Shown piece by piece: positions 1 through 39,498 of a stretch of DNA of 39,498 bases. This DNA is from a virus. The notes below the pieces were generated by a model that was not told where the DNA came from, made no database searches, and saw only the letters and a program-made list of their open reading frames with translations. Made by a program: the position numbers and the translations under genes. The first letter of the stretch is position 1. Every line of letters begins with the position of its first letter. Location of the stretch: the IMG/VR virus record IMGVR_UViG_3300035034_001051; one strand, written 5' to 3'.

Positions 1-127
1 CCACAAGCCGAACTGAAGGATACCTTAAAGATTTCACTTAAGTGAATACCTGTACATTGGTTTGTATACCAGTAGTCGTAGGCCTTAAGCTTTCTTTCAG
101 AGTACCTTTCTTTGTTAGTCTTTATAG
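1..127. repeat. Exact 127-bp duplicate of 39372..39498, a contig-end overlap from a circular or permuted assembly
   Basis: Base-by-base comparison: ccacaagccgaactgaagg...gttagtctttatag occurs at both window ends. The copy falls inside the DNA polymerase locus, not in the terminase-to-early-gene intergenic region where a T7-like terminal repeat belongs. Confidence 0.95.
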
Positions 128-238
128 CTTTCTTTTGGAAAAGGCTTCGCTCAGGGTTGGCATATGATTTCATCACTTAGCTTCCTCTGAATTCACCTGA
201 TTATTCGATAGACCTTGCGATCTAAAGGCACAATGTTT
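1..238 (-). ncRNA. Group I intron in the DNA polymerase gene, 5' portion (intron nt 1-238; continues at 39371 across the contig junction)
   Basis: Exon 1 ends ...GCU UGG GUG CAU at nt 239, so the last exon base is U. Intron nt 4-11, CAUUGUGC (plus 228..235), can pair with the exon-1 end GCAU (P1, with a U.G at the splice site) and with the exon-2 start GAUG (P10). A GNRA-capped hairpin UAGAUC-GCAA-GGUCUA lies at intron nt 15-30. The exon-1 frame hits a TGA 22 codons into the intron (173..175). Confidence 0.8.
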
Positions 239-5480: not shown

Positions 5481-5508
5481 GGTGTTTCTCTAATCGTGGT
5501 CCCCATTA
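5481..5508 (-). promoter_or_regulatory. Phage RNAP promoter (family member a)
   Basis: Minus strand reads TAATGGGGACCACGATTAGAGAAACACC, near-identical to the copies at 6661, 7129 and 11843. Intergenic between endonuclease I and the amidase. Architecture resembles the T7 promoter TAATACGACTCACTATAGGGAGA. Confidence 0.8.
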
Positions 5509-6660: not shown

Positions 6661-6688
6661 GGTATTTCTCTAATCGTGGTCCCCATTA
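6661..6688 (-). promoter_or_regulatory. Phage RNAP promoter (family member b)
   Basis: Minus strand reads TAATGGGGACCACGATTAGAGAAATACC. It overlaps the stop of the 86-aa gene and lies upstream of SSB. Confidence 0.8.
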
Positions 6689-6993: not shown

Positions 6994-7084
6994 ATCTTTA
7001 AGTAAAAATCTTTAAGTAGTACCTAAGGATCTTTAAGTAGTACCTAAGGATCTTTAAGTAGTACCTAAGGATCTTTAAGTAGTT
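6994..7084. repeat. Tandem array of a 21-bp unit atctttaagtagtacctaagg (3 full copies plus about 2 partial)
   Basis: Full units at 7008..7028, 7029..7049 and 7050..7070. Partial copies at 6994..7004 and 7071..7084, and a related gtctttaagtt at 7113. Non-coding, downstream of the twin phage promoters. Confidence 0.9.
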
Positions 7085-7128: not shown

Positions 7129-7156
7129 GGTATTTCTCTAATCGTGGTCCCCATTA
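7129..7156 (-). promoter_or_regulatory. Phage RNAP promoter (family member c)
   Basis: Minus strand reads TAATGGGGACCACGATTAGAGAAATACC, identical to the copy at 6661. Confidence 0.8.
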
Positions 7157-7164
7157 ATTTTACC

Positions 7165-7234
7165 TGTGGATAACTCTAGGTTTTTCTCTACTTGTGGTCC
7201 CCTTTAATTTATCTGTGGATAAGTCTGTGGATAA
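7165..7234 (-). promoter_or_regulatory. Three perfect DnaA-box 9-mers (TTATCCACA on the minus strand)
   Basis: tgtggataa on the plus strand at 7165..7173, 7214..7222 and 7226..7234. On the minus strand, one box ends 7-8 nt upstream of each twin promoter. Confidence 0.7.
7179..7206 (-). promoter_or_regulatory. Degenerate phage RNAP promoter (family member d)
   Basis: Minus strand reads TAAAGGGGACCACAAGTAGAGAAAAACC, with several mismatches to the family consensus. It lies 50 bp upstream of member c, like the T7 phi1.1A/phi1.1B pair. Confidence 0.55.
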
Positions 7235-11321: not shown

Positions 11322-11444
11322 GTAAAAAACTAAAATAATTTAAGGTATAACTAAAAGTAATTTAGTGTCCACCTCTGGAGCCCTTGAGGCCCAAGGGATT
11401 AAGGTAATAAAAATATTTTAAATTAAATTAAGTAATTACCTTGG

Positions 11445-11549
11445 GCGTACCTATAGGCGCTTATAGGAGTGTACCCGTAGGCGTACCCATGGGCGCGTAA
11501 GGCGTACATATAGGCGTACATATAGGCGTACCTATAGGCGCTTACAGAT
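11445..11549. repeat. Array of about nine 12-bp-periodic units related to GCGTAC(C/A)TATAG
   Basis: Units were read consecutively. gcgtacctatag occurs at 11445 and 11526, and gcgtacatatag at 11502 and 11514. Diverged units lie between them. The array is flanked by the near-identical 22-mers gcgtacctataggcgcttatag and gcgtacctataggcgcttacag. Confidence 0.85.
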
Positions 11550-11842: not shown

Positions 11843-11870
11843 GGGGTTTCTCTAATAGTGGTCCCCATTA
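11843..11870 (-). promoter_or_regulatory. Phage RNAP promoter (family member e; analogous in position to T7 phiOL)
   Basis: Minus strand reads TAATGGGGACCACTATTAGAGAAACCCC. It lies in the non-coding genome-end region and points toward the early genes. Confidence 0.7.
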
Positions 11871-14129: not shown

Positions 14130-14323
14130 TATGTGCAATCCTCCAGGTCTTCAATGTATATGAGTAGCTCTTCAAGCTGCTTTGAGGTAAGGTTAACACC
14201 ATCCTCAGTTCTCTCTATATTATTCCAAGTAGGCTTAGTTGCCAAACAAGGTTCAGTGTCCATGGGCTTAAGCATAGAGCACCCTGACAAAGTAGCCACC
14301 ATAAGTAATGTAAGTAATCTCAT
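14129..14323 (-). CDS. Lipoprotein (64 aa), o-spanin candidate
   Basis: Signal peptide plus lipobox MRLLTLLMVATLSG|C. The ATG at 14323 overlaps the deformylase stop as TAATG. The track start at 14332 is a GTG. Confidence 0.6.
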   Translation of the reverse strand: MRLLTLLMVATLSGCSMLKPMDTEPCLATKPTWNNIERTEDGVNLTSKQLEELLIYIEDLEDCT

Positions 14324-14751
14324 TATAGCCACCTGTCTATTAAGAGTCCATCTAAATGATCACACTCATGCTGCACACAAAAGGCTTCAGTGGTCTGTAG
14401 GTTGTGTGAAACCTGCTTACCATACATAGTCTGATAGGTTACCTTAACCTTTGGGAACCTAGGAACCTCAGCAACTACTCCAGGTACAGAGAAGCACCCC
14501 TCAAAGGACTTAACCTTAATGTTGTTCATACTAGTATACGTAGGATTTACCATAATGGTCAGCTTCCCAAGAACCTTAGCACAAATAACCCGGACGTTGG
14601 TTCCTACTTGAGGAGCTGCCATGCCCAGGCCACTTTTTTGCTTAGTCTTCTTTAAGAGTTTTTTGCAGAAGTCTTGGAGTTCCTTGTCAAAGGTTTCCAC
14701 AGGGGACGAAGATTTACTTAGGCTCTTCTCTGGTTTCGTTAGAATCTTCAT
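14323..14751 (-). CDS. def: Peptide deformylase, minimal phage type (about 142 aa)
   Basis: All three PDF motifs are present: GLGMAAPQVG, EGCFSVPG and QHECDHLDG. The protein ends only 8 residues after the HExxH motif. The start was chosen at MKILTKPE...; upstream ATGs at 14772 and 14874 are possible. Confidence 0.85.
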   Translation of the reverse strand: MKILTKPEKSLSKSSSPVETFDKELQDFCKKLLKKTKQKSGLGMAAPQVGTNVRVICAKVLGKLTIMVNPTYTSMNNIKVKSFEGCFSVPGVVAEVPRFPKVKVTYQTMYGKQVSHNLQTTEAFCVQHECDHLDGLLIDRWL

Positions 14752-14977
14752 AGTCAATTGGTGCTCCATCATCTCGTTTAAATTTATTCTCAAAAGCCGA
14801 TACAGGGTCTCTTTGGATTTCCTCCATACGAGCTTCACGTTCTTTCTTCTTGTGTATCTTAAGGCCTTTTTCAAAGAGCTTAAGTATCCATAGGATTAGT
14901 TCTACAATTTTCATAAGTGAACCTAAAAGGGACCAATAGGTCCCATAAGAGTTAGTCTTTGTTTTTTGCTTCGCCAT
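14714..14977 (-). CDS. Membrane protein with an N-terminal TM helix and a charged C-terminal domain (87 aa), i-spanin candidate
   Basis: TM segment YWSLLGSLMKIVELILWILKLF followed by a K/E-rich segment. Located directly after the holin candidate. Confidence 0.45.
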   Translation of the reverse strand: MAKQKTKTNSYGTYWSLLGSLMKIVELILWILKLFEKGLKIHKKKEREARMEEIQRDPVSAFENKFKRDDGAPIDYEDSNETREEPK

Positions 14978-32351: not shown

Positions 32352-33221
32352 TCAAAATAAGTTAGATCGGCCAAGCTTCTGTTCAACCATTTGGACATAA
32401 GCAGTGTCTACACGCTGACCTTGTCCTGTATACCGTGGGTCATTCATAGCAGCTACCATCTCAGCTACTGACTCAAAGGTTTCACCCGAGGTTGATTCAG
32501 GAGTTCCTTTGGCCCTTGAGCCTTCGTATCCTGTAGCTTTCTTGTAGTTACCTACGATAACCTCAAAGAGTCCTTTAGCTGTCTCAACGTCCTGGCTCTG
32601 GATTGCTGCGTTGTACGCCTTGGTGATTGCAGACTCTCCTTCTTTTGCAACCCACTGGTTGATCTTATCAAAGTTTTCCTTATCGCCTGCAATCTCATAG
32701 AAGTCTTTTGCTGTAGCTTCACTACGCATGCGGAGACCTTCCATGTAAATCTCAGTCATTTCCTTGTTAAACCCCTTAGCTTCGAGCTTCTCATAGGACT
32801 CTTTGCTCAGGTCACCTGTAGAGTAGAACTCATCATTAAATGTTTCCATATCCTCAGAGGTAATCTTAGCTCCGTCTTCAGAGTCCTTATCTTCAGAGTC
32901 CTTATCTTCAGAGTCCTTATCTTCAGAGTCCTTATCGGATTCTTCTGCATCTTCAGTGGATTCGTCTTGCTTTCCACCTTGCTTCTTTTCAAGCTCGGCA
33001 TATGCCTTGGCCATATCTTCAACGGACTTGAACTTTTCAGGCAACCACTCAGGGCGGTTAGTGTCTTTTTCCTCTTCACCCTCTTTGGCTGGCACATCTT
33101 CACCTCGCTCACGAGCTTCTGACAAGGCGATCATTTCTTTATCATGGTCACTCATGCCAATGGCGTTCGGGTCCTGATTTACATTATCGTCTTGGACTTC
33201 TTGGTTATTTACTTCTGGCAT
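32352..33221 (-). CDS. Scaffolding protein (T7 gp9-like, 289 aa)
   Basis: Highly acidic, positioned between portal and capsid. Contains a (DKDSE)x4 repeat. Confidence 0.8.
   Translation of the reverse strand: MPEVNNQEVQDDNVNQDPNAIGMSDHDKEMIALSEARERGEDVPAKEGEEEKDTNRPEWLPEKFKSVEDMAKAYAELEKKQGGKQDESTEDAEESDKDSEDKDSEDKDSEDKDSEDGAKITSEDMETFNDEFYSTGDLSKESYEKLEAKGFNKEMTEIYMEGLRMRSEATAKDFYEIAGDKENFDKINQWVAKEGESAITKAYNAAIQSQDVETAKGLFEVIVGNYKKATGYEGSRAKGTPESTSGETFESVAEMVAAMNDPRYTGQGQRVDTAYVQMVEQKLGRSNLF
32877..32936. repeat. Four exact tandem copies of the 15-bp unit ttcagagtccttatc inside the scaffold gene
   Basis: Read directly at 32877, 32892, 32907 and 32922. Encodes DKDSE x4 on the minus strand. 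Confidence 0.9.
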
Positions 33222-35362: not shown

Positions 35363-35536
35363 TTATTTCCTTTTACTGAGTTGTGACTTATGGATTCCCT
35401 CAAGATAATCAATGAGTTCCTTACGTCCTTGGGCCTTATGCAGGTCTTCAAGGGAGCTAATGAAGTCAATGTTCTCAGGGTGTGAGCGCTTTAAAGCGTC
35501 TATAAGTTCTTGTGACACATGAGGAAAATCTTTCAT
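35363..35536 (-). CDS. Small hypothetical protein (57 aa), not in the ORF track
   Basis: Hand translation: MKDFPHVSQELIDALKRSHPENIDFISSLEDLHKAQGRKELIDYLEGIHKSQLSKRK. ATGA overlap with the exonuclease stop. Its stop lies 1 nt before the next ATG. Confidence 0.55.
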   Translation of the reverse strand: MKDFPHVSQELIDALKRSHPENIDFISSLEDLHKAQGRKELIDYLEGIHKSQLSKRK

Positions 35537-36399
35537 GATTTAGGTTCCCATAGGATAGGTGTTTTGGTTTCAGAATTCCAGTCGTCTGTTCTCAGTATAC
35601 GCACAAGGCGTGCCATAGTCAAGGCGTAGGCTTCGTCAAGGTCTTTTTTCTTATACTGCTCAACGATCATAGACCACCAGTCACACTTGTCAGTTTTGTC
35701 TAAGAGCTTCTGGGCTGTCTTGTCGCCAAACCCTGGGCAACCTGGGATACCATCAGTCCTATCTCCAGTAAGACACTGAGTATAAAACTTATAGTCTGCC
35801 TCTTCATCTGTCACATAGTAAAGTTCTTTCTTATCCAAACCATAATGCCAGCCTGGGACAGTGTCAAGGTCCTTATCAATTGTGCAGATTACTTTGGTGT
35901 AACCTTTAAGATAACCTGGAGAAGTTGCTAGTATACCAAGGACATCATCAGCCTCAAGGCCGTCTATGAGAAAAGTATCATACTCCTCGTAGTATTTATT
36001 CCTGAGGTACTTCTTAAGGATAGGTCCGTAGGACTCTGGGTTATTCCTCTCGCACTTATAGGCAGGGAATACCTGATGCCTAAAGTTTGCTTCAGAGGAG
36101 AGGTTCATTACTACCTTGTCTGCCTGTAGTCTTGTCTTAAGGTAAAACATGTAGTCAGATGAGATAAGGTCAGCTTCTGATTCTCTTGCAAACCAGGACC
36201 AAACACCATCAGGCCATCTTACTTGCTTCTCTGAAGCTCGGCTAACCTTATGAACAATAACATCAGTGTCCACAAGGATAGCTACTGGACCATCAAGGAA
36301 AGGATTAGGCCCCTTCGAACTGTCCACCGGCGTATCCGTTGTTGCTATGATCTTTGAAGAGTCTACTGTAGATGTAGTCATAAGCGTGTTGCGCTCCAT
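35533..36399 (-). CDS. 5'-3' exonuclease (T7 gp6-like, FEN/PIN family, about 288 aa)
   Basis: AILVDTDVIVHK, GLEADDVLGILA, ICTIDKDLDTVPG and GDRTDGIPGCPGFGDKTA parallel T7 gp6 ILVMDGDWLV, LEGDDVMGVIA, SCDKDFKTIP and GDITDGYSGIAGWGD. The start is uncertain: ATG at 36399 or 36381. The track start at 36489 is unlikely. Confidence 0.85.
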   Translation of the reverse strand: MERNTLMTTSTVDSSKIIATTDTPVDSSKGPNPFLDGPVAILVDTDVIVHKVSRASEKQVRWPDGVWSWFARESEADLISSDYMFYLKTRLQADKVVMNLSSEANFRHQVFPAYKCERNNPESYGPILKKYLRNKYYEEYDTFLIDGLEADDVLGILATSPGYLKGYTKVICTIDKDLDTVPGWHYGLDKKELYYVTDEEADYKFYTQCLTGDRTDGIPGCPGFGDKTAQKLLDKTDKCDWWSMIVEQYKKKDLDEAYALTMARLVRILRTDDWNSETKTPILWEPKS

Positions 36400-36607
36400 T
36401 AATTGATTGTTGAATTTCGAACTGGTCAATCTTATTCTTCCATAGGAAGCATTCCTTTTGCTCACGCAACTCCCTCTGCCATCTCTCAACCTCTTGGAGG
36501 CCTAGCATATTAACTGGAATTTTATGAGCCTTTAACCAATTCTCTCCCTTCCACTGTGTCTCTTCTGTGAAGAAATCTACATATAGGGTATTACGGCGGC
36601 CTTCCAT
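36305..36607 (-). CDS. Hypothetical protein (100 aa)
   Basis: ATG start. Its 3' end overlaps the exonuclease start by about 77-95 nt out of frame. Confidence 0.55.
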   Translation of the reverse strand: MEGRRNTLYVDFFTEETQWKGENWLKAHKIPVNMLGLQEVERWQRELREQKECFLWKNKIDQFEIQQSINGAQHAYDYIYSRLFKDHSNNGYAGGQFEGA

Positions 36608-36616
36608 ATGTTCTCC

Positions 36617-36820
36617 TTATTTGTAAGCTTCTAGCTCTCGTGAGAACTGAGTTATAATGGTTCGTGCTTCCTCTGTATATCCCTTGTCAATCATGATAAG
36701 GGTTAGAGATGATGCACCTTTAGATTCAGCTTTGGCAATAGTTGCTTTGTGAGCCTTGCGTATTTGTGTAAGCTTCTTTGCTACGTCAAACATACGGTTG
36801 ATAACTTTATATACACTCAT
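36617..36820 (-). CDS. Hypothetical protein (67 aa)
   Basis: Internal ATG at 36820 (MSVYKVINRMFDV...), 1 nt after the zinc-ribbon gene stop. The longer track ORF to 36997 overlaps that gene completely. Confidence 0.5.
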   Translation of the reverse strand: MSVYKVINRMFDVAKKLTQIRKAHKATIAKAESKGASSLTLIMIDKGYTEEARTIITQFSRELEAYK

Positions 36821-36821
36821 T

Positions 36822-37007
36822 CTATTTTCTCTCTTTGTTGGATTGTCCATACCAGCCTTCCCCGGAGCCTTTAAAGCTGGGTCCTGACTTGAATATCTTT
36901 GAGACTTCAGAGTCACACTGAGTACACTGAGGCTTGTCTTGGTTAATCCCATGGAACTCTGAGAACTCATGGGAACATTGGGTACATCTATAATCATATG
37001 TAGGCAT
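36822..37007 (-). CDS. FmdB-type CxxC zinc-ribbon protein (61 aa)
   Basis: MPTYDYRCTQCSHEFSEF....PQCTQCDS matches the MP.YEYRC..CGH.FE....C..C signature of the FmdB zinc-ribbon family. GGAGG lies upstream of the ATG at 37007. Confidence 0.7.
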   Translation of the reverse strand: MPTYDYRCTQCSHEFSEFHGINQDKPQCTQCDSEVSKIFKSGPSFKGSGEGWYGQSNKERK

Positions 37008-37022
37008 TATACAGACCTCCAC

Positions 37023-37215: not shown

Positions 37216-37800
37216 TTAAATCTCCACGTATTTGCAGATAAGCTCCCGTAGGCGCTCAATCTCTTTGAGTTGGTTCATGTTATTCTCATGAGCTTCCTCA
37301 AGTTCTTTCCATGGGTCAATATTTGAGACTAATACAGTAGGCTCTACAGAATCGTAGGCTTTAGAGAAGTCCAAAGGCTCACTGTAGATAGCTTGGGGAT
37401 ATACCCCTTCAGATTTAACCAAGTACTCAAGGTCCTCTTCATGGGCATAGGAATCCAAGGCTTGCTTGTACTTACCTAATGTAAACTCTGCGGTGTCAAG
37501 CCTCTCCTTAAGTTCAAGCCTTTCAGATTGTAGGTTTAGTATACTTGTGGAAGCTTCGTTAAGATGTGACTCCAGTCTATCAACAAGCTTATCCCTTGAA
37601 GTCATCCTACTAATAGTATTCTCATGTTCACATACATCTGTACGTAACCTAAGGCACTTATCTCTTAGCTGGTCACAATCGTTTTTGTACTCTTCTTCCA
37701 TGGACTCCATGGCTCCTACATAATGCTCGTAGTTCTGTACAATAACACGGTTGAAGTTATCAATCATCTGGTTTACTGTCTTTTCATTAACTGTATTCAT
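37216..37800 (-). CDS. Coiled-coil hypothetical protein (194 aa)
   Basis: ATG start, ATGA overlap with the upstream gene, heptad-like charged sequence. Confidence 0.6.
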   Translation of the reverse strand: MNTVNEKTVNQMIDNFNRVIVQNYEHYVGAMESMEEEYKNDCDQLRDKCLRLRTDVCEHENTISRMTSRDKLVDRLESHLNEASTSILNLQSERLELKERLDTAEFTLGKYKQALDSYAHEEDLEYLVKSEGVYPQAIYSEPLDFSKAYDSVEPTVLVSNIDPWKELEEAHENNMNQLKEIERLRELICKYVEI

Positions 37801-38249
37801 AGTTTTATCTCCGTTGTAATTACCAAAGCTGTGCCAAAAATCTTGAGGCTAGGCATAAGGTTATATTTAGTATAGGTTAGGCCAAGGTGACCATGAGGAC
37901 ATAAGGTTTGGCTTGTGCCAGTCCCACTGTAACACCCATGGTATCCATAGTTAAACCCTAGGCTGTAGTTAAACTCAAGGTACTTACCCACAGGGGTCCG
38001 CCAGGTTCTACTGACAAACAAAGTATCATGGTCATAGGAGTTCTTAAAGTACCCTGCTGTATAGCTTAGATACTCAAAGGCTACTAGGTTATGCTCTGAG
38101 TTTGTAGTGTCACCTGAGGTATAGTGCCATGAGTTTGCCCCAAGATGTACCCTGGTTTCTGCCCTAATGTCTTGATTGTAGAGGATGATTAGAATGAAGA
38201 GGCATATAGCATTCATTACCCAGAGGGCCTTGCTCTTTTCTCTAGTCAT
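37797..38249 (-). CDS. Signal-peptide protein with PagP-like (lipid A palmitoyltransferase) beta-barrel motifs (150 aa)
   Basis: N-terminal signal/anchor KALWVMNAICLFILIILY. The motif series ANSWH...FKNSYDHD...TWRTP...YSLGF parallels E. coli PagP AITWH(His33)...FKDS(Asp76-Ser77)WNKW...TWRP...LGLGF, as I recall that sequence. Alternating aromatic beta-strand pattern. Confidence 0.4.
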   Translation of the reverse strand: MTREKSKALWVMNAICLFILIILYNQDIRAETRVHLGANSWHYTSGDTTNSEHNLVAFEYLSYTAGYFKNSYDHDTLFVSRTWRTPVGKYLEFNYSLGFNYGYHGCYSGTGTSQTLCPHGHLGLTYTKYNLMPSLKIFGTALVITTEIKL

Positions 38250-38422
38250 TGTTGAGTGTCCTCTGGAAGGCCTGAGATACAGACATAAAGTGTTTGACTA
38301 TAGGTAGCCTCTGTAATCCCTGTTATCTCTCCATCATAGTTAAAACCATCAGGAGCCGTTAGGGATACTTCAGAATCCTCAGGGTATTCCTGTAGCTTTT
38401 CTATAAGTTCTTTAACTTTCAT
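38246..38422 (-). CDS. Small hypothetical protein (58 aa), not in the ORF track
   Basis: Hand translation: MKVKELIEKLQEYPEDSEVSLTAPDGFNYDGEITGITEATYSQTLYVCISGLPEDTQQ. TAATG overlap upstream and ATGA overlap downstream. Confidence 0.55.
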   Translation of the reverse strand: MKVKELIEKLQEYPEDSEVSLTAPDGFNYDGEITGITEATYSQTLYVCISGLPEDTQQ

Positions 38423-39061: not shown

Positions 39062-39217
39062 TTAGTGTGTGTCTGCCCAGGTAGATCCATAAGCACTTTC
39101 AGAAGCAATAGGTATCCTCATACCATAAGCCTCTCCAGCCTCAATAGAAGCTGCCTCAACGATAGCCTTGATAGGTTCAGGGTCTACGTCATTACGTACT
39201 GCAAGTTGGACTTCATC
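39062..39217 (-). CDS. T7-like DNA polymerase, exon 2 (51 codons plus stop)
   Basis: DEVQLAVRND...GMRIPIASESAYGSTWADTH parallels the T7 DNAP C-terminus HDEIQVGCRTEE...LLDTEGKMGPNWAICH. Joining it to exon 1 restores motif C as WVH-DE. Confidence 0.85.
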   Translation of the reverse strand, partial: DEVQLAVRNDVDPEPIKAIVEAASIEAGEAYGMRIPIASESAYGSTWADTH

Positions 39218-39371
39218 CTTACTGTTAACTTCCTGTGTCTCACCTTTAAATGAGTGTCGGACTATATCATCAACCACTAGGGTTGTCAGGTACTTCCACA
39301 ACTCTTCCATGAGTCATGTACTCGCTCTCGCGATAGTCTCTGCACGTTCCTTTTTCCATTCTCTTATCCAC
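39218..39371 (-). ncRNA. Group I intron in the DNA polymerase gene, 3' portion (intron nt 239-392) containing the catalytic-core R and S elements
   Basis: The minus strand reads GUGCAGAGACUA (39334..39345; classic R element GUUCAGAGACUA) and UGAUAUAGUCC (39259..39269; classic S element AAGAUAUAGUCC). GACUA/UAGUC form P7 with a bulged A. Hairpins CGC-GAGA-GCG and CAACC-CUAGU-GGUUG lie between them. The last intron nt is G (39218). Total length is 392 nt, which is not a multiple of 3. Confidence 0.8.
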
Positions 39372-39498
39372 CCACAAGCCGAACTGAAGGATACCTTAAA
39401 GATTTCACTTAAGTGAATACCTGTACATTGGTTTGTATACCAGTAGTCGTAGGCCTTAAGCTTTCTTTCAGAGTACCTTTCTTTGTTAGTCTTTATAG
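39372..39498. repeat. Second copy of the 127-bp contig-end overlap (= 1..127)
   Basis: Identical to 1..127. Confidence 0.95.

Follow-up and report, generated by a model that had tools for sequence, protein, structure and literature searches.

A divergent PagP-like protein, predicted to be an outer-membrane barrel and a candidate lipid enzyme, encoded among the DNA-metabolism genes of a T7-like phage

Enterobacterial PagP (PF07017; structures 1THQ, 1MM4 and 3GP6) is an eight-stranded outer-membrane barrel produced with a signal peptide, and acts through residues which we take to be His33, Asp76 and Ser77. The 19-residue amphipathic helix at its N terminus is characteristic of the protein but dispensable for catalysis (PMC2887491). 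Several phages already have genes annotated as PagP-like: Burkholderia phages BcepIL02 and DC1 (PMC9144972) and CSP3 (PMC10269572), phages of Vibrio coralliilyticus (bioRxiv 10.64898/2026.09.21.753358) and, in its early region, the T7-like Ralstonia phage phiAp1. Here we analyse a gene for a 150-residue protein carried by the virus record IMGVR_UViG_3300035034_001051 of IMG/VR, a stretch of 39,498 nucleotides referred to below as the window; like PagP, its product has a predicted signal peptide and an eight-stranded barrel. We consider it reasonably likely that this product is a helix-less, minimal outer-membrane barrel enzyme of phrog_3600, a branch of the PagP superfamily carried by phages, and that it remodels the outer leaflet. 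Since phage PagP-like annotations and a PHROGs entry precede it, the gene is a new and divergent member of a catalogued, uncharacterised family; the proposal in an initial annotation that such a protein would be new in a T7-like phage fails, because phrog_3600 is already labelled PagP and the Vibrio and phiAp1 annotations exist. New here are an exact account of what sets the family apart from PagP and the chain of evidence that joins the two.

Predicted fold and conserved extracellular rim

The N terminus of the window protein carries three positive residues (R3, K5, K7) and a hydrophobic helix (residues 3-24), after which signal peptidase I cleavage is predicted behind A30 at I-R-A/E, a site aligned with V-S-A/E in the closest relative overall, the metagenomic protein P0002 (60% identity). 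Conservation was counted over 149 family representatives, which are about 30% identical to the window protein; 145 of them have a hydrophobic presequence. A lipoprotein was considered and rejected: the protein lacks a lipobox, and Cys16 falls within the hydrophobic core of its presequence. An AlphaFold model built from the 149 relatives reached a predicted local distance difference test (pLDDT) score of 93.2, the two-sequence input having given an unusable 51, and places after the signal helix eight strands (residues 33-42, 52-60, 63-69, 75-86, 91-103, 115-126, 131-138 and 141-149) joined on the extracellular side by short loops of 9, 5, 11 and 2 residues. The C terminus is hydrophobic (I-K-L), and members of the family end mostly in Phe, Leu or Ile.

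A Foldseek search of the PDB with this model returned nothing but small outer-membrane barrels, the OmpA transmembrane domain first (1.7e-4) and PagP 3gp6 next (1.4e-3), followed at lower ranks by Ail, OmpX, PagP 1thq and 1mm4, OmpW and NspA. The comparison with PagP structures suggested in the initial annotation therefore matched all three of them, but with OmpA ranked above, so that structure by itself does not single out PagP. Among predicted viral structures, the best matches were uncharacterised proteins of Salicola, Vibrio, Aeromonas and Salinibacter phages, with E values down to 9e-15. The signal sequence and outer-membrane beta-barrel read from the gene at the outset are upheld by the presequence, the model and the OmpA, PagP, Ail and OmpX matches, and the product is very likely an outer-membrane barrel.

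In the model topology, the invariant polar residues all lie at the extracellular ends of strands or in loops 1-3 (Table 1). The full set of Ser40, His42, Asn50, His53, Asn70, Ser71 and Tyr103 is present without substitution in 116 of the 149 representatives. Loop 3 holds a pair of cysteines, Cys106 and Cys117, which probably form a disulfide: 129 of the 149 members have exactly two cysteines in the mature part, and in most members lacking the pair both positions are replaced together, mostly by hydrophobic residues. Like the presequences, this co-varying pair speaks for export. The alternation of residues along the strands suggests that the upper lumen is lined by small apolar residues and the lower lumen by charged ones (E59, E92, R82/R84, R147 and K149), an arrangement that may be likened to the acyl-chain pocket of PagP, the hydrocarbon ruler in the upper half of its barrel.

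Table 1. Positions of the gene, of the predicted features of its product and of related elements. Positions are in the window unless an accession is given; residue counts refer to the 149 family representatives.
Feature	Position	Strand	Details
Predicted 150-aa PagP-like outer-membrane barrel precursor, full coding sequence	37797..38249	-	ATG start; stop codon 37797-37799; from the list of open reading frames
Shine-Dalgarno GAGGA	38259..38263	-	9 nt 5' of the ATG; read from the sequence
Predicted Sec-type signal peptide, residues 1-30	38160..38249	-	helix 3-24 in both models; predicted signal peptidase I site
Predicted mature barrel, residues 31-150, eight strands, ~120 aa	37800..38159	-	model secondary structure
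S40-W41-H42, extracellular end of strand 1	38124..38132	-	H42 148/148; S40 138/149
N50-S-E-H53, loop 1 / strand 2 junction	38091..38102	-	N50 136/149; H53 133/149
F68-K-N70-S71, strand 3 / loop 2	38037..38048	-	N70 149/149; S71 145/149, Thr in 4
G102-Y103, extracellular end of strand 5	37941..37946	-	G102 148/149; Y103 149/149
Loop 3, C106 (37932-37934) to C117 (37899-37901)	37899..37934	-	both Cys in 137/149
194-aa open reading frame, downstream neighbour	37216-37800	-	translationally coupled
Phage-promoter-like element AATGGGGACCACnAnTAGAGAAA, 23 nt, five copies	5485-5507, 6665-6687, 7133-7155, 7183-7205, 11847-11869	-	0 expected by chance
PagP-like open reading frame of Ralstonia phage YO103_7	ON170178.1 4679-5161		161 aa, helix-less

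Relationship to PagP

The window protein matches phrog_3600, a family labelled 'PagP', over residues 16-149 (E=6.2e-14), as do its relatives P0068, P0064 and P0108 (3e-33 to 2e-11). The same region of this profile is matched by E. coli PagP (E=1.3e-6) and not by OmpX, OmpA or OmpW. More specifically, a tblastn search with E. coli PagP revealed an unannotated open reading frame (ORF) in the T7-like Ralstonia phage YO103_7 that scores 27.9 bits against Pfam PagP, above the gathering threshold of 24 bits, and 30.5 bits against the profile of the window protein's family. Once signal peptides are removed, this ORF obtains 21.8 bits with the family profile and 27.9 bits with that of enterobacterial PagP; the corresponding scores of phiAp1 gp11 are 26.8 and 23.0 bits, and the control barrels OmpX, OmpA and OmpW remain at or below 1.5 bits with either. 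The YO103_7 ORF is the best bridge from true PagP to the family. As the intermediates score against both the family and PagP and the control barrels do not, we posit that the window protein is likely a homologue within the PagP superfamily.

The register of the alignment agrees between hhalign, hmmsearch and MAFFT, with SWH placed on T31-W-H33 of PagP, FKNS on F74-K-D76-S77 and SLGF on G104-L-G106-F. PagP and the family share collinear blocks, namely (S/T)-W-H, N-E, F-K-x-S, L-G-F..G, P-x-x-x-P and a C-terminal aromatic or hydrophobic residue. In a three-way MAFFT alignment, His42 and His33 form one invariant column and Ser71 and Ser77 another, Asn70 falls on Asp76 and Asn50 on Asn47; hhalign likewise puts Asn50 at the N47-E48 motif of PagP. 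All four motifs from which the initial annotation had argued are present (S40-W-H42, F68-K-N70-S71, T82-W-R-T-P86 and S96-L-G98-F), and SWH, FKNS and SLGF are in register with PagP. TWRTP is off register and appears to be a coincidence, because W83 aligns to W89 of PagP (GYGW) and not to W93 (TWRP), and because residues 82-86 vary within the family.

The initial annotation had also remarked on an Asn in place of the Asp of the PagP triad, offering an altered enzyme or an inactive lipid A binder as explanations. The first part is confirmed by the alignment of Asn70 to Asp76, while the inactive binder is disfavoured: Asn70 is invariant in all 149 representatives alongside His42, Ser71 and Tyr103, which argues against a decayed enzyme as well as against an inactive binder. 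Asn70 is therefore a trait of the family and not a mark of decay.

A number of results weigh against placing the protein with PagP. It has no match in Pfam even at E<=10, and searches of PDB sequences, whether the query was the protein or the 149-sequence profile, turned up chance matches only. The family profile scores enterobacterial PagP at no more than 6.4 bits, and the family was not picked up by an iterative search that started from PagP and covered all the collected proteins together with decoys. Alignment of the family by hhalign to E. coli PagP or to a 25-sequence PagP alignment gave E values of 0.03-0.05 and a score of 16.4, which is no better than controls (about 17 for OmpA and OmpW, and 18.8 for the best shuffled PagP); this score, although obtained in the correct register, was discarded as evidence of homology. 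To these are added the ranking of OmpA over PagP by Foldseek, the replacement of Asp76 by Asn70, and the absence, in the literature searched, of experimental work on any phage PagP-like protein. Scans of the window protein with NCBIfam and PADLOC models gave no match, and the Pfam PagP model matched one of the 149 relatives, at 18.4 bits and below its threshold. By these direct tests the window protein is not Pfam PagP. Of the homology claimed in the initial annotation, remote relationship through intermediates stands and membership of the Pfam family does not, the Pfam search it had recommended having returned no match to PagP.

Gene, genome and distribution of the family

The ORF is real, has a good ribosome-binding site and is translationally coupled to both of its neighbours. 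ATGA start/stop overlaps tie it to a 58-aa ORF upstream and to the 194-aa ORF downstream, and the gene is thus part of a tightly packed string on one strand. It falls in the interval that separates the C-terminal exon of the DNA polymerase (39062-39310) from the exonuclease gene (35533-36489), and the position in the DNA-metabolism region of a T7-like phage given by the initial annotation is therefore correct. Recent horizontal acquisition was rejected, since the local GC content of 0.40-0.44 is like the 0.43 of the genome. The 194-aa neighbour has no PHROG match and weakly matches the LmuB and JetC models (E about 1e-3), which describe long defence proteins of coiled-coil type. Further along the same strand, a 126-aa ORF (36617-36997, minus) overlaps a 66-aa ORF (36822-37022, minus), so that the gene call is ambiguous; the shorter has a weak match to an FmdB-like zinc ribbon (E=1.5e-4) and the longer has no match.

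The window is the complete genome of a marine T7-like phage, with every gene on the minus strand. Its first 127 bases (1-127) are identical to its last 127 (39372-39498), so that the assembly either closes into a circle or represents a genome bearing terminal repeats; 39,371 bases are unique, and the GC content is 0.43. The T7-like gene set includes a single-subunit RNA polymerase, a gp2.5-like single-stranded DNA-binding protein, an endonuclease, an amidase, a primase/helicase, DNA polymerase, exonuclease, portal and large terminase. No close DNA relative was found among the 50,697 phage records of INPHARED, and the nearest matches of the portal are Pelagibacter podophages at 40% amino-acid identity. 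The phage RNA polymerase probably uses the five copies of AATGGGGACCACnAnTAGAGAAA as promoters. Each copy is in the early or the DNA-metabolism part of the genome, and none was found upstream of the structural genes. No promoter match of this type occurs between position 5507 and the target gene, which would put the gene in one unit with the primase and polymerase genes, and co-transcription with the DNA-metabolism genes is the simplest reading.

Several other features of the genome were observed. The DNA polymerase gene is split, with a 604-aa ORF (173-1987, minus) that stops just past ...QMAWVH and the C-terminal end (...VVDDIVRH...) on an 82-aa ORF (39062-39310, minus); the junction lies at about 238..1 / 39371..39240, with roughly 340 nt in between. 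This interval matches model RF00028 (group I intron) at 39238-39498 (minus; 22.6 bits, E=0.0016); the match is truncated on its 5' side, below the gathering score and cut by the end of the window, and the split probably marks a group I intron in the motif C region. A peptide deformylase gene (14323-14874, minus; phrog_2890, E=1e-32), an auxiliary metabolic gene, adjoins the large terminase gene. Tandem repeats occur at 7003-7083 (21-nt units just 3' of the RNA polymerase gene), at 11444-11547 in the early region (GGCGTACCTATAGGCG-type, with irregular spacing of 12-36 nt), and at 32875-32934 (15-nt units inside a 289-aa ORF, 32352-33221).

A HMMER search recovered at least 316 homologous clusters (50% identity, E<=1e-3), nearly all of 135-165 aa. 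Marine phages and Vibrio phages commonly carry the family: queried with P0068, cultured-phage genomes gave 186 records, of which 185 are Vibrio phages and many carry the annotation PagP, and no match was found among 72,556 plasmids. A search with a narrower, single-motif alignment gave one locus in a bacterial genome, on a phage-like contig, and three viral loci. The settings of relatives are varied and include a lone opposite-strand gene adjoining the integrase of a myovirus-like element, a podovirus replication module, clusters of small early genes on phage contigs, and, in Vibrio phages, early or recombination regions. The idea of a conserved partner gene was rejected, since no two of the contexts examined have the same neighbours.

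Proposed function and comparison with known systems

We propose that the precursor is exported by Sec and cut after Ala30, that Cys106 and Cys117 are oxidised in the periplasm, and that the host barrel assembly machinery (BAM) inserts the barrel of about 120 residues by way of its hydrophobic C terminus. Because the invariant polar residues map to the extracellular ends of strands 1, 2, 3 and 5, Ser40, His42, Asn50, His53, Asn70, Ser71 and Tyr103 would sit at the height of the esters and headgroups of the outer leaflet, where His42 and Ser71, aided by Asn70, may act on outer-leaflet lipids by transferring acyl groups or cleaving esters. The invariance of the Asn and the retention of the whole constellation across very divergent sequences make a working active site likelier than a dead one, and on balance we lean towards a catalytically active lipid enzyme. 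PagL, a lipid A 3-O-deacylase, and OMPLA are likewise outer-membrane barrels, and their Ser/His active sites lie at the interface with the outer leaflet. OMPLA, which has 12 strands and works as a dimer, uses a His-Ser-Asn triad with Asn as the third residue, and this makes Asn70 plausible in that role.

Homology points to the PagP reaction, in which a phospholipid donates the acyl chain to lipid A, as the likeliest, and on that ground the protein can tentatively be called a putative lipid A acyltransferase. Read together with the DNA-metabolism genes, the gene would lead to remodelling of the infected cell's surface during the latent period. The payoff for the phage is speculative, and could be reduced adsorption or superinfection by phages that depend on lipopolysaccharide (LPS), fewer progeny lost to debris, or a barrier kept intact until lysis. 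The occurrence of the gene in virulent phages and beside the integrase in temperate ones fits surface conversion better than a role in lysis. That the Asn-Ser, disulfide-stapled form represents a distinct, mainly phage-borne class of enzyme, with chemistry perhaps unlike that of PagP (a His-Ser-Asn esterase working on lipid A or on phospholipid of the outer leaflet would be one example), is a more doubtful extension of this proposal.

The alternative that survives best keeps the fold and the ancestry and makes the protein a hydrolase, either a lipid A deacylase or an outer-membrane phospholipase, which would thin or destabilise the outer leaflet and might thereby aid release or destroy LPS receptors. 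Its catalytic residues would be Ser40-x-His42, which share a face of strand 1, or else the pair of Ser71 and His42, with Asn as the third residue. Such an enzyme would accommodate both the invariant Asn at the Asp76 position and the i, i+2 spacing of Ser40 and His42, features reminiscent of OMPLA and PagL, in which H-x-S is combined with Asn or Glu. No sequence relationship of the window protein to PagL or OMPLA is detectable, however, and PagL is a weak structural match (Foldseek rank 31, E=0.11, template modelling score 0.32) with no PagL match in Pfam or NCBIfam. PagP itself can act as an esterase and a phospholipase towards substrate analogues (PMC2887491), but membrane damage would ill suit lone genes that sit beside integrases in temperate phages, and we regard a hydrolase as unlikely.

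A barrel without catalytic function, acting as a decoy, a receptor blocker or a conversion factor of the Lom/Ail kind that excludes superinfecting phages by binding LPS or a host protein, is quite improbable. Phages do encode small non-enzymatic barrels, such as Lom of lambda, and both the first rank of OmpA in Foldseek and the missing catalytic Asp are in keeping with one here. Extracellular loops of 2-11 residues leave little binding surface, though, and invariant His, Asn, Ser and Tyr at the rim of proteins with about 30% identity are typical of active sites; furthermore, OmpX matches phrog_108 (Lom), and the window protein has no match to the Lom/Ail family. An uncleaved inner-membrane anchor with PagP-like motifs arising by chance, for which the empty Pfam search would speak, is extremely unlikely given the eight-strand model at high pLDDT, hundreds of relatives with cleavable-looking presequences and a C-terminal aromatic residue, and the intermediates that bridge the family to Pfam PagP.

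If the proposed enzyme is active, phages would chemically edit the outer leaflet earlier in infection, besides destroying the envelope at lysis. Were the distinct class also real, lytic and temperate phages of marine bacteria would rewrite the outer leaflet of their hosts during infection, giving widespread control over adsorption, superinfection or outer-membrane integrity. The label matters in its own right, as 'PagP' has been copied into many genome records and, in the preprint on V. coralliilyticus phages, serves the argument that phages carry virulence factors (bioRxiv 10.64898/2026.09.21.753358). Given that the label rests on remote homology, and that the Pfam threshold, the helix and Asp76 are all wanting, we suggest that the annotation be read as 'PagP-like'.

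Compared with enterobacterial PagP, the window protein retains His33 and Ser77 at the extracellular rim as His42 and Ser71, in a mature protein of about 120 aa as opposed to 161; its loops are shorter, as is the hairpin of strands 2 and 3. The N-terminal amphipathic helix is absent, as strand 1 begins two residues past the predicted cleavage site and the three-way alignment has a gap of about 27 columns opposite the PagP helix. The family as a whole further differs in its invariant Asn in place of Asp76, in the added pair of cysteines in loop 3, and in Tyr103, which is invariant, and His53. A closer link to PagP of Pseudomonas aeruginosa (PA1343), another small protein of divergent sequence, was also considered.

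The betaproteobacterial phage proteins (Ralstonia phiAp1 gp11 and YO103_7/Anchaing; Burkholderia BcepIL02 gp22, DC1 and CSP3 orf72) are intermediate between PagP and the family. They are helix-less, of similar size, and pass straight from the signal peptide into strand 1; they have the S-x-H motif and the G-Y of strand 5, the latter common to the Ralstonia phage intermediates and the family and not to E. coli PagP; and their genes lie in early or replication regions, including those of T7-like phages. In contrast to the window protein, they keep the Asp-Ser of PagP, lack the cysteine pair and His53, and are nearer to PagP in the C-terminal half, with about 15-19% identity to the window protein and, for BcepIL02 gp22, 5.8 bits against the family profile.

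The members of phrog_3600 in Vibrio, Salicola and Aeromonas phages, among them those of Vibrio phages K75, F89, PWH3a-P1 and qdvp001 and gp519 of Salicola phage SCTP-2, belong to the same family as the window protein and are often annotated as 'antimicrobial peptide resistance and lipid A acylation protein PagP'. They differ from it in sequence, at about 25-40% identity, and in their carriers, which are mostly sipho- or myoviruses and not T7-like; like the window protein, they are of the Asn-Ser type, with the cysteine pair and precursors of 140-160 aa.

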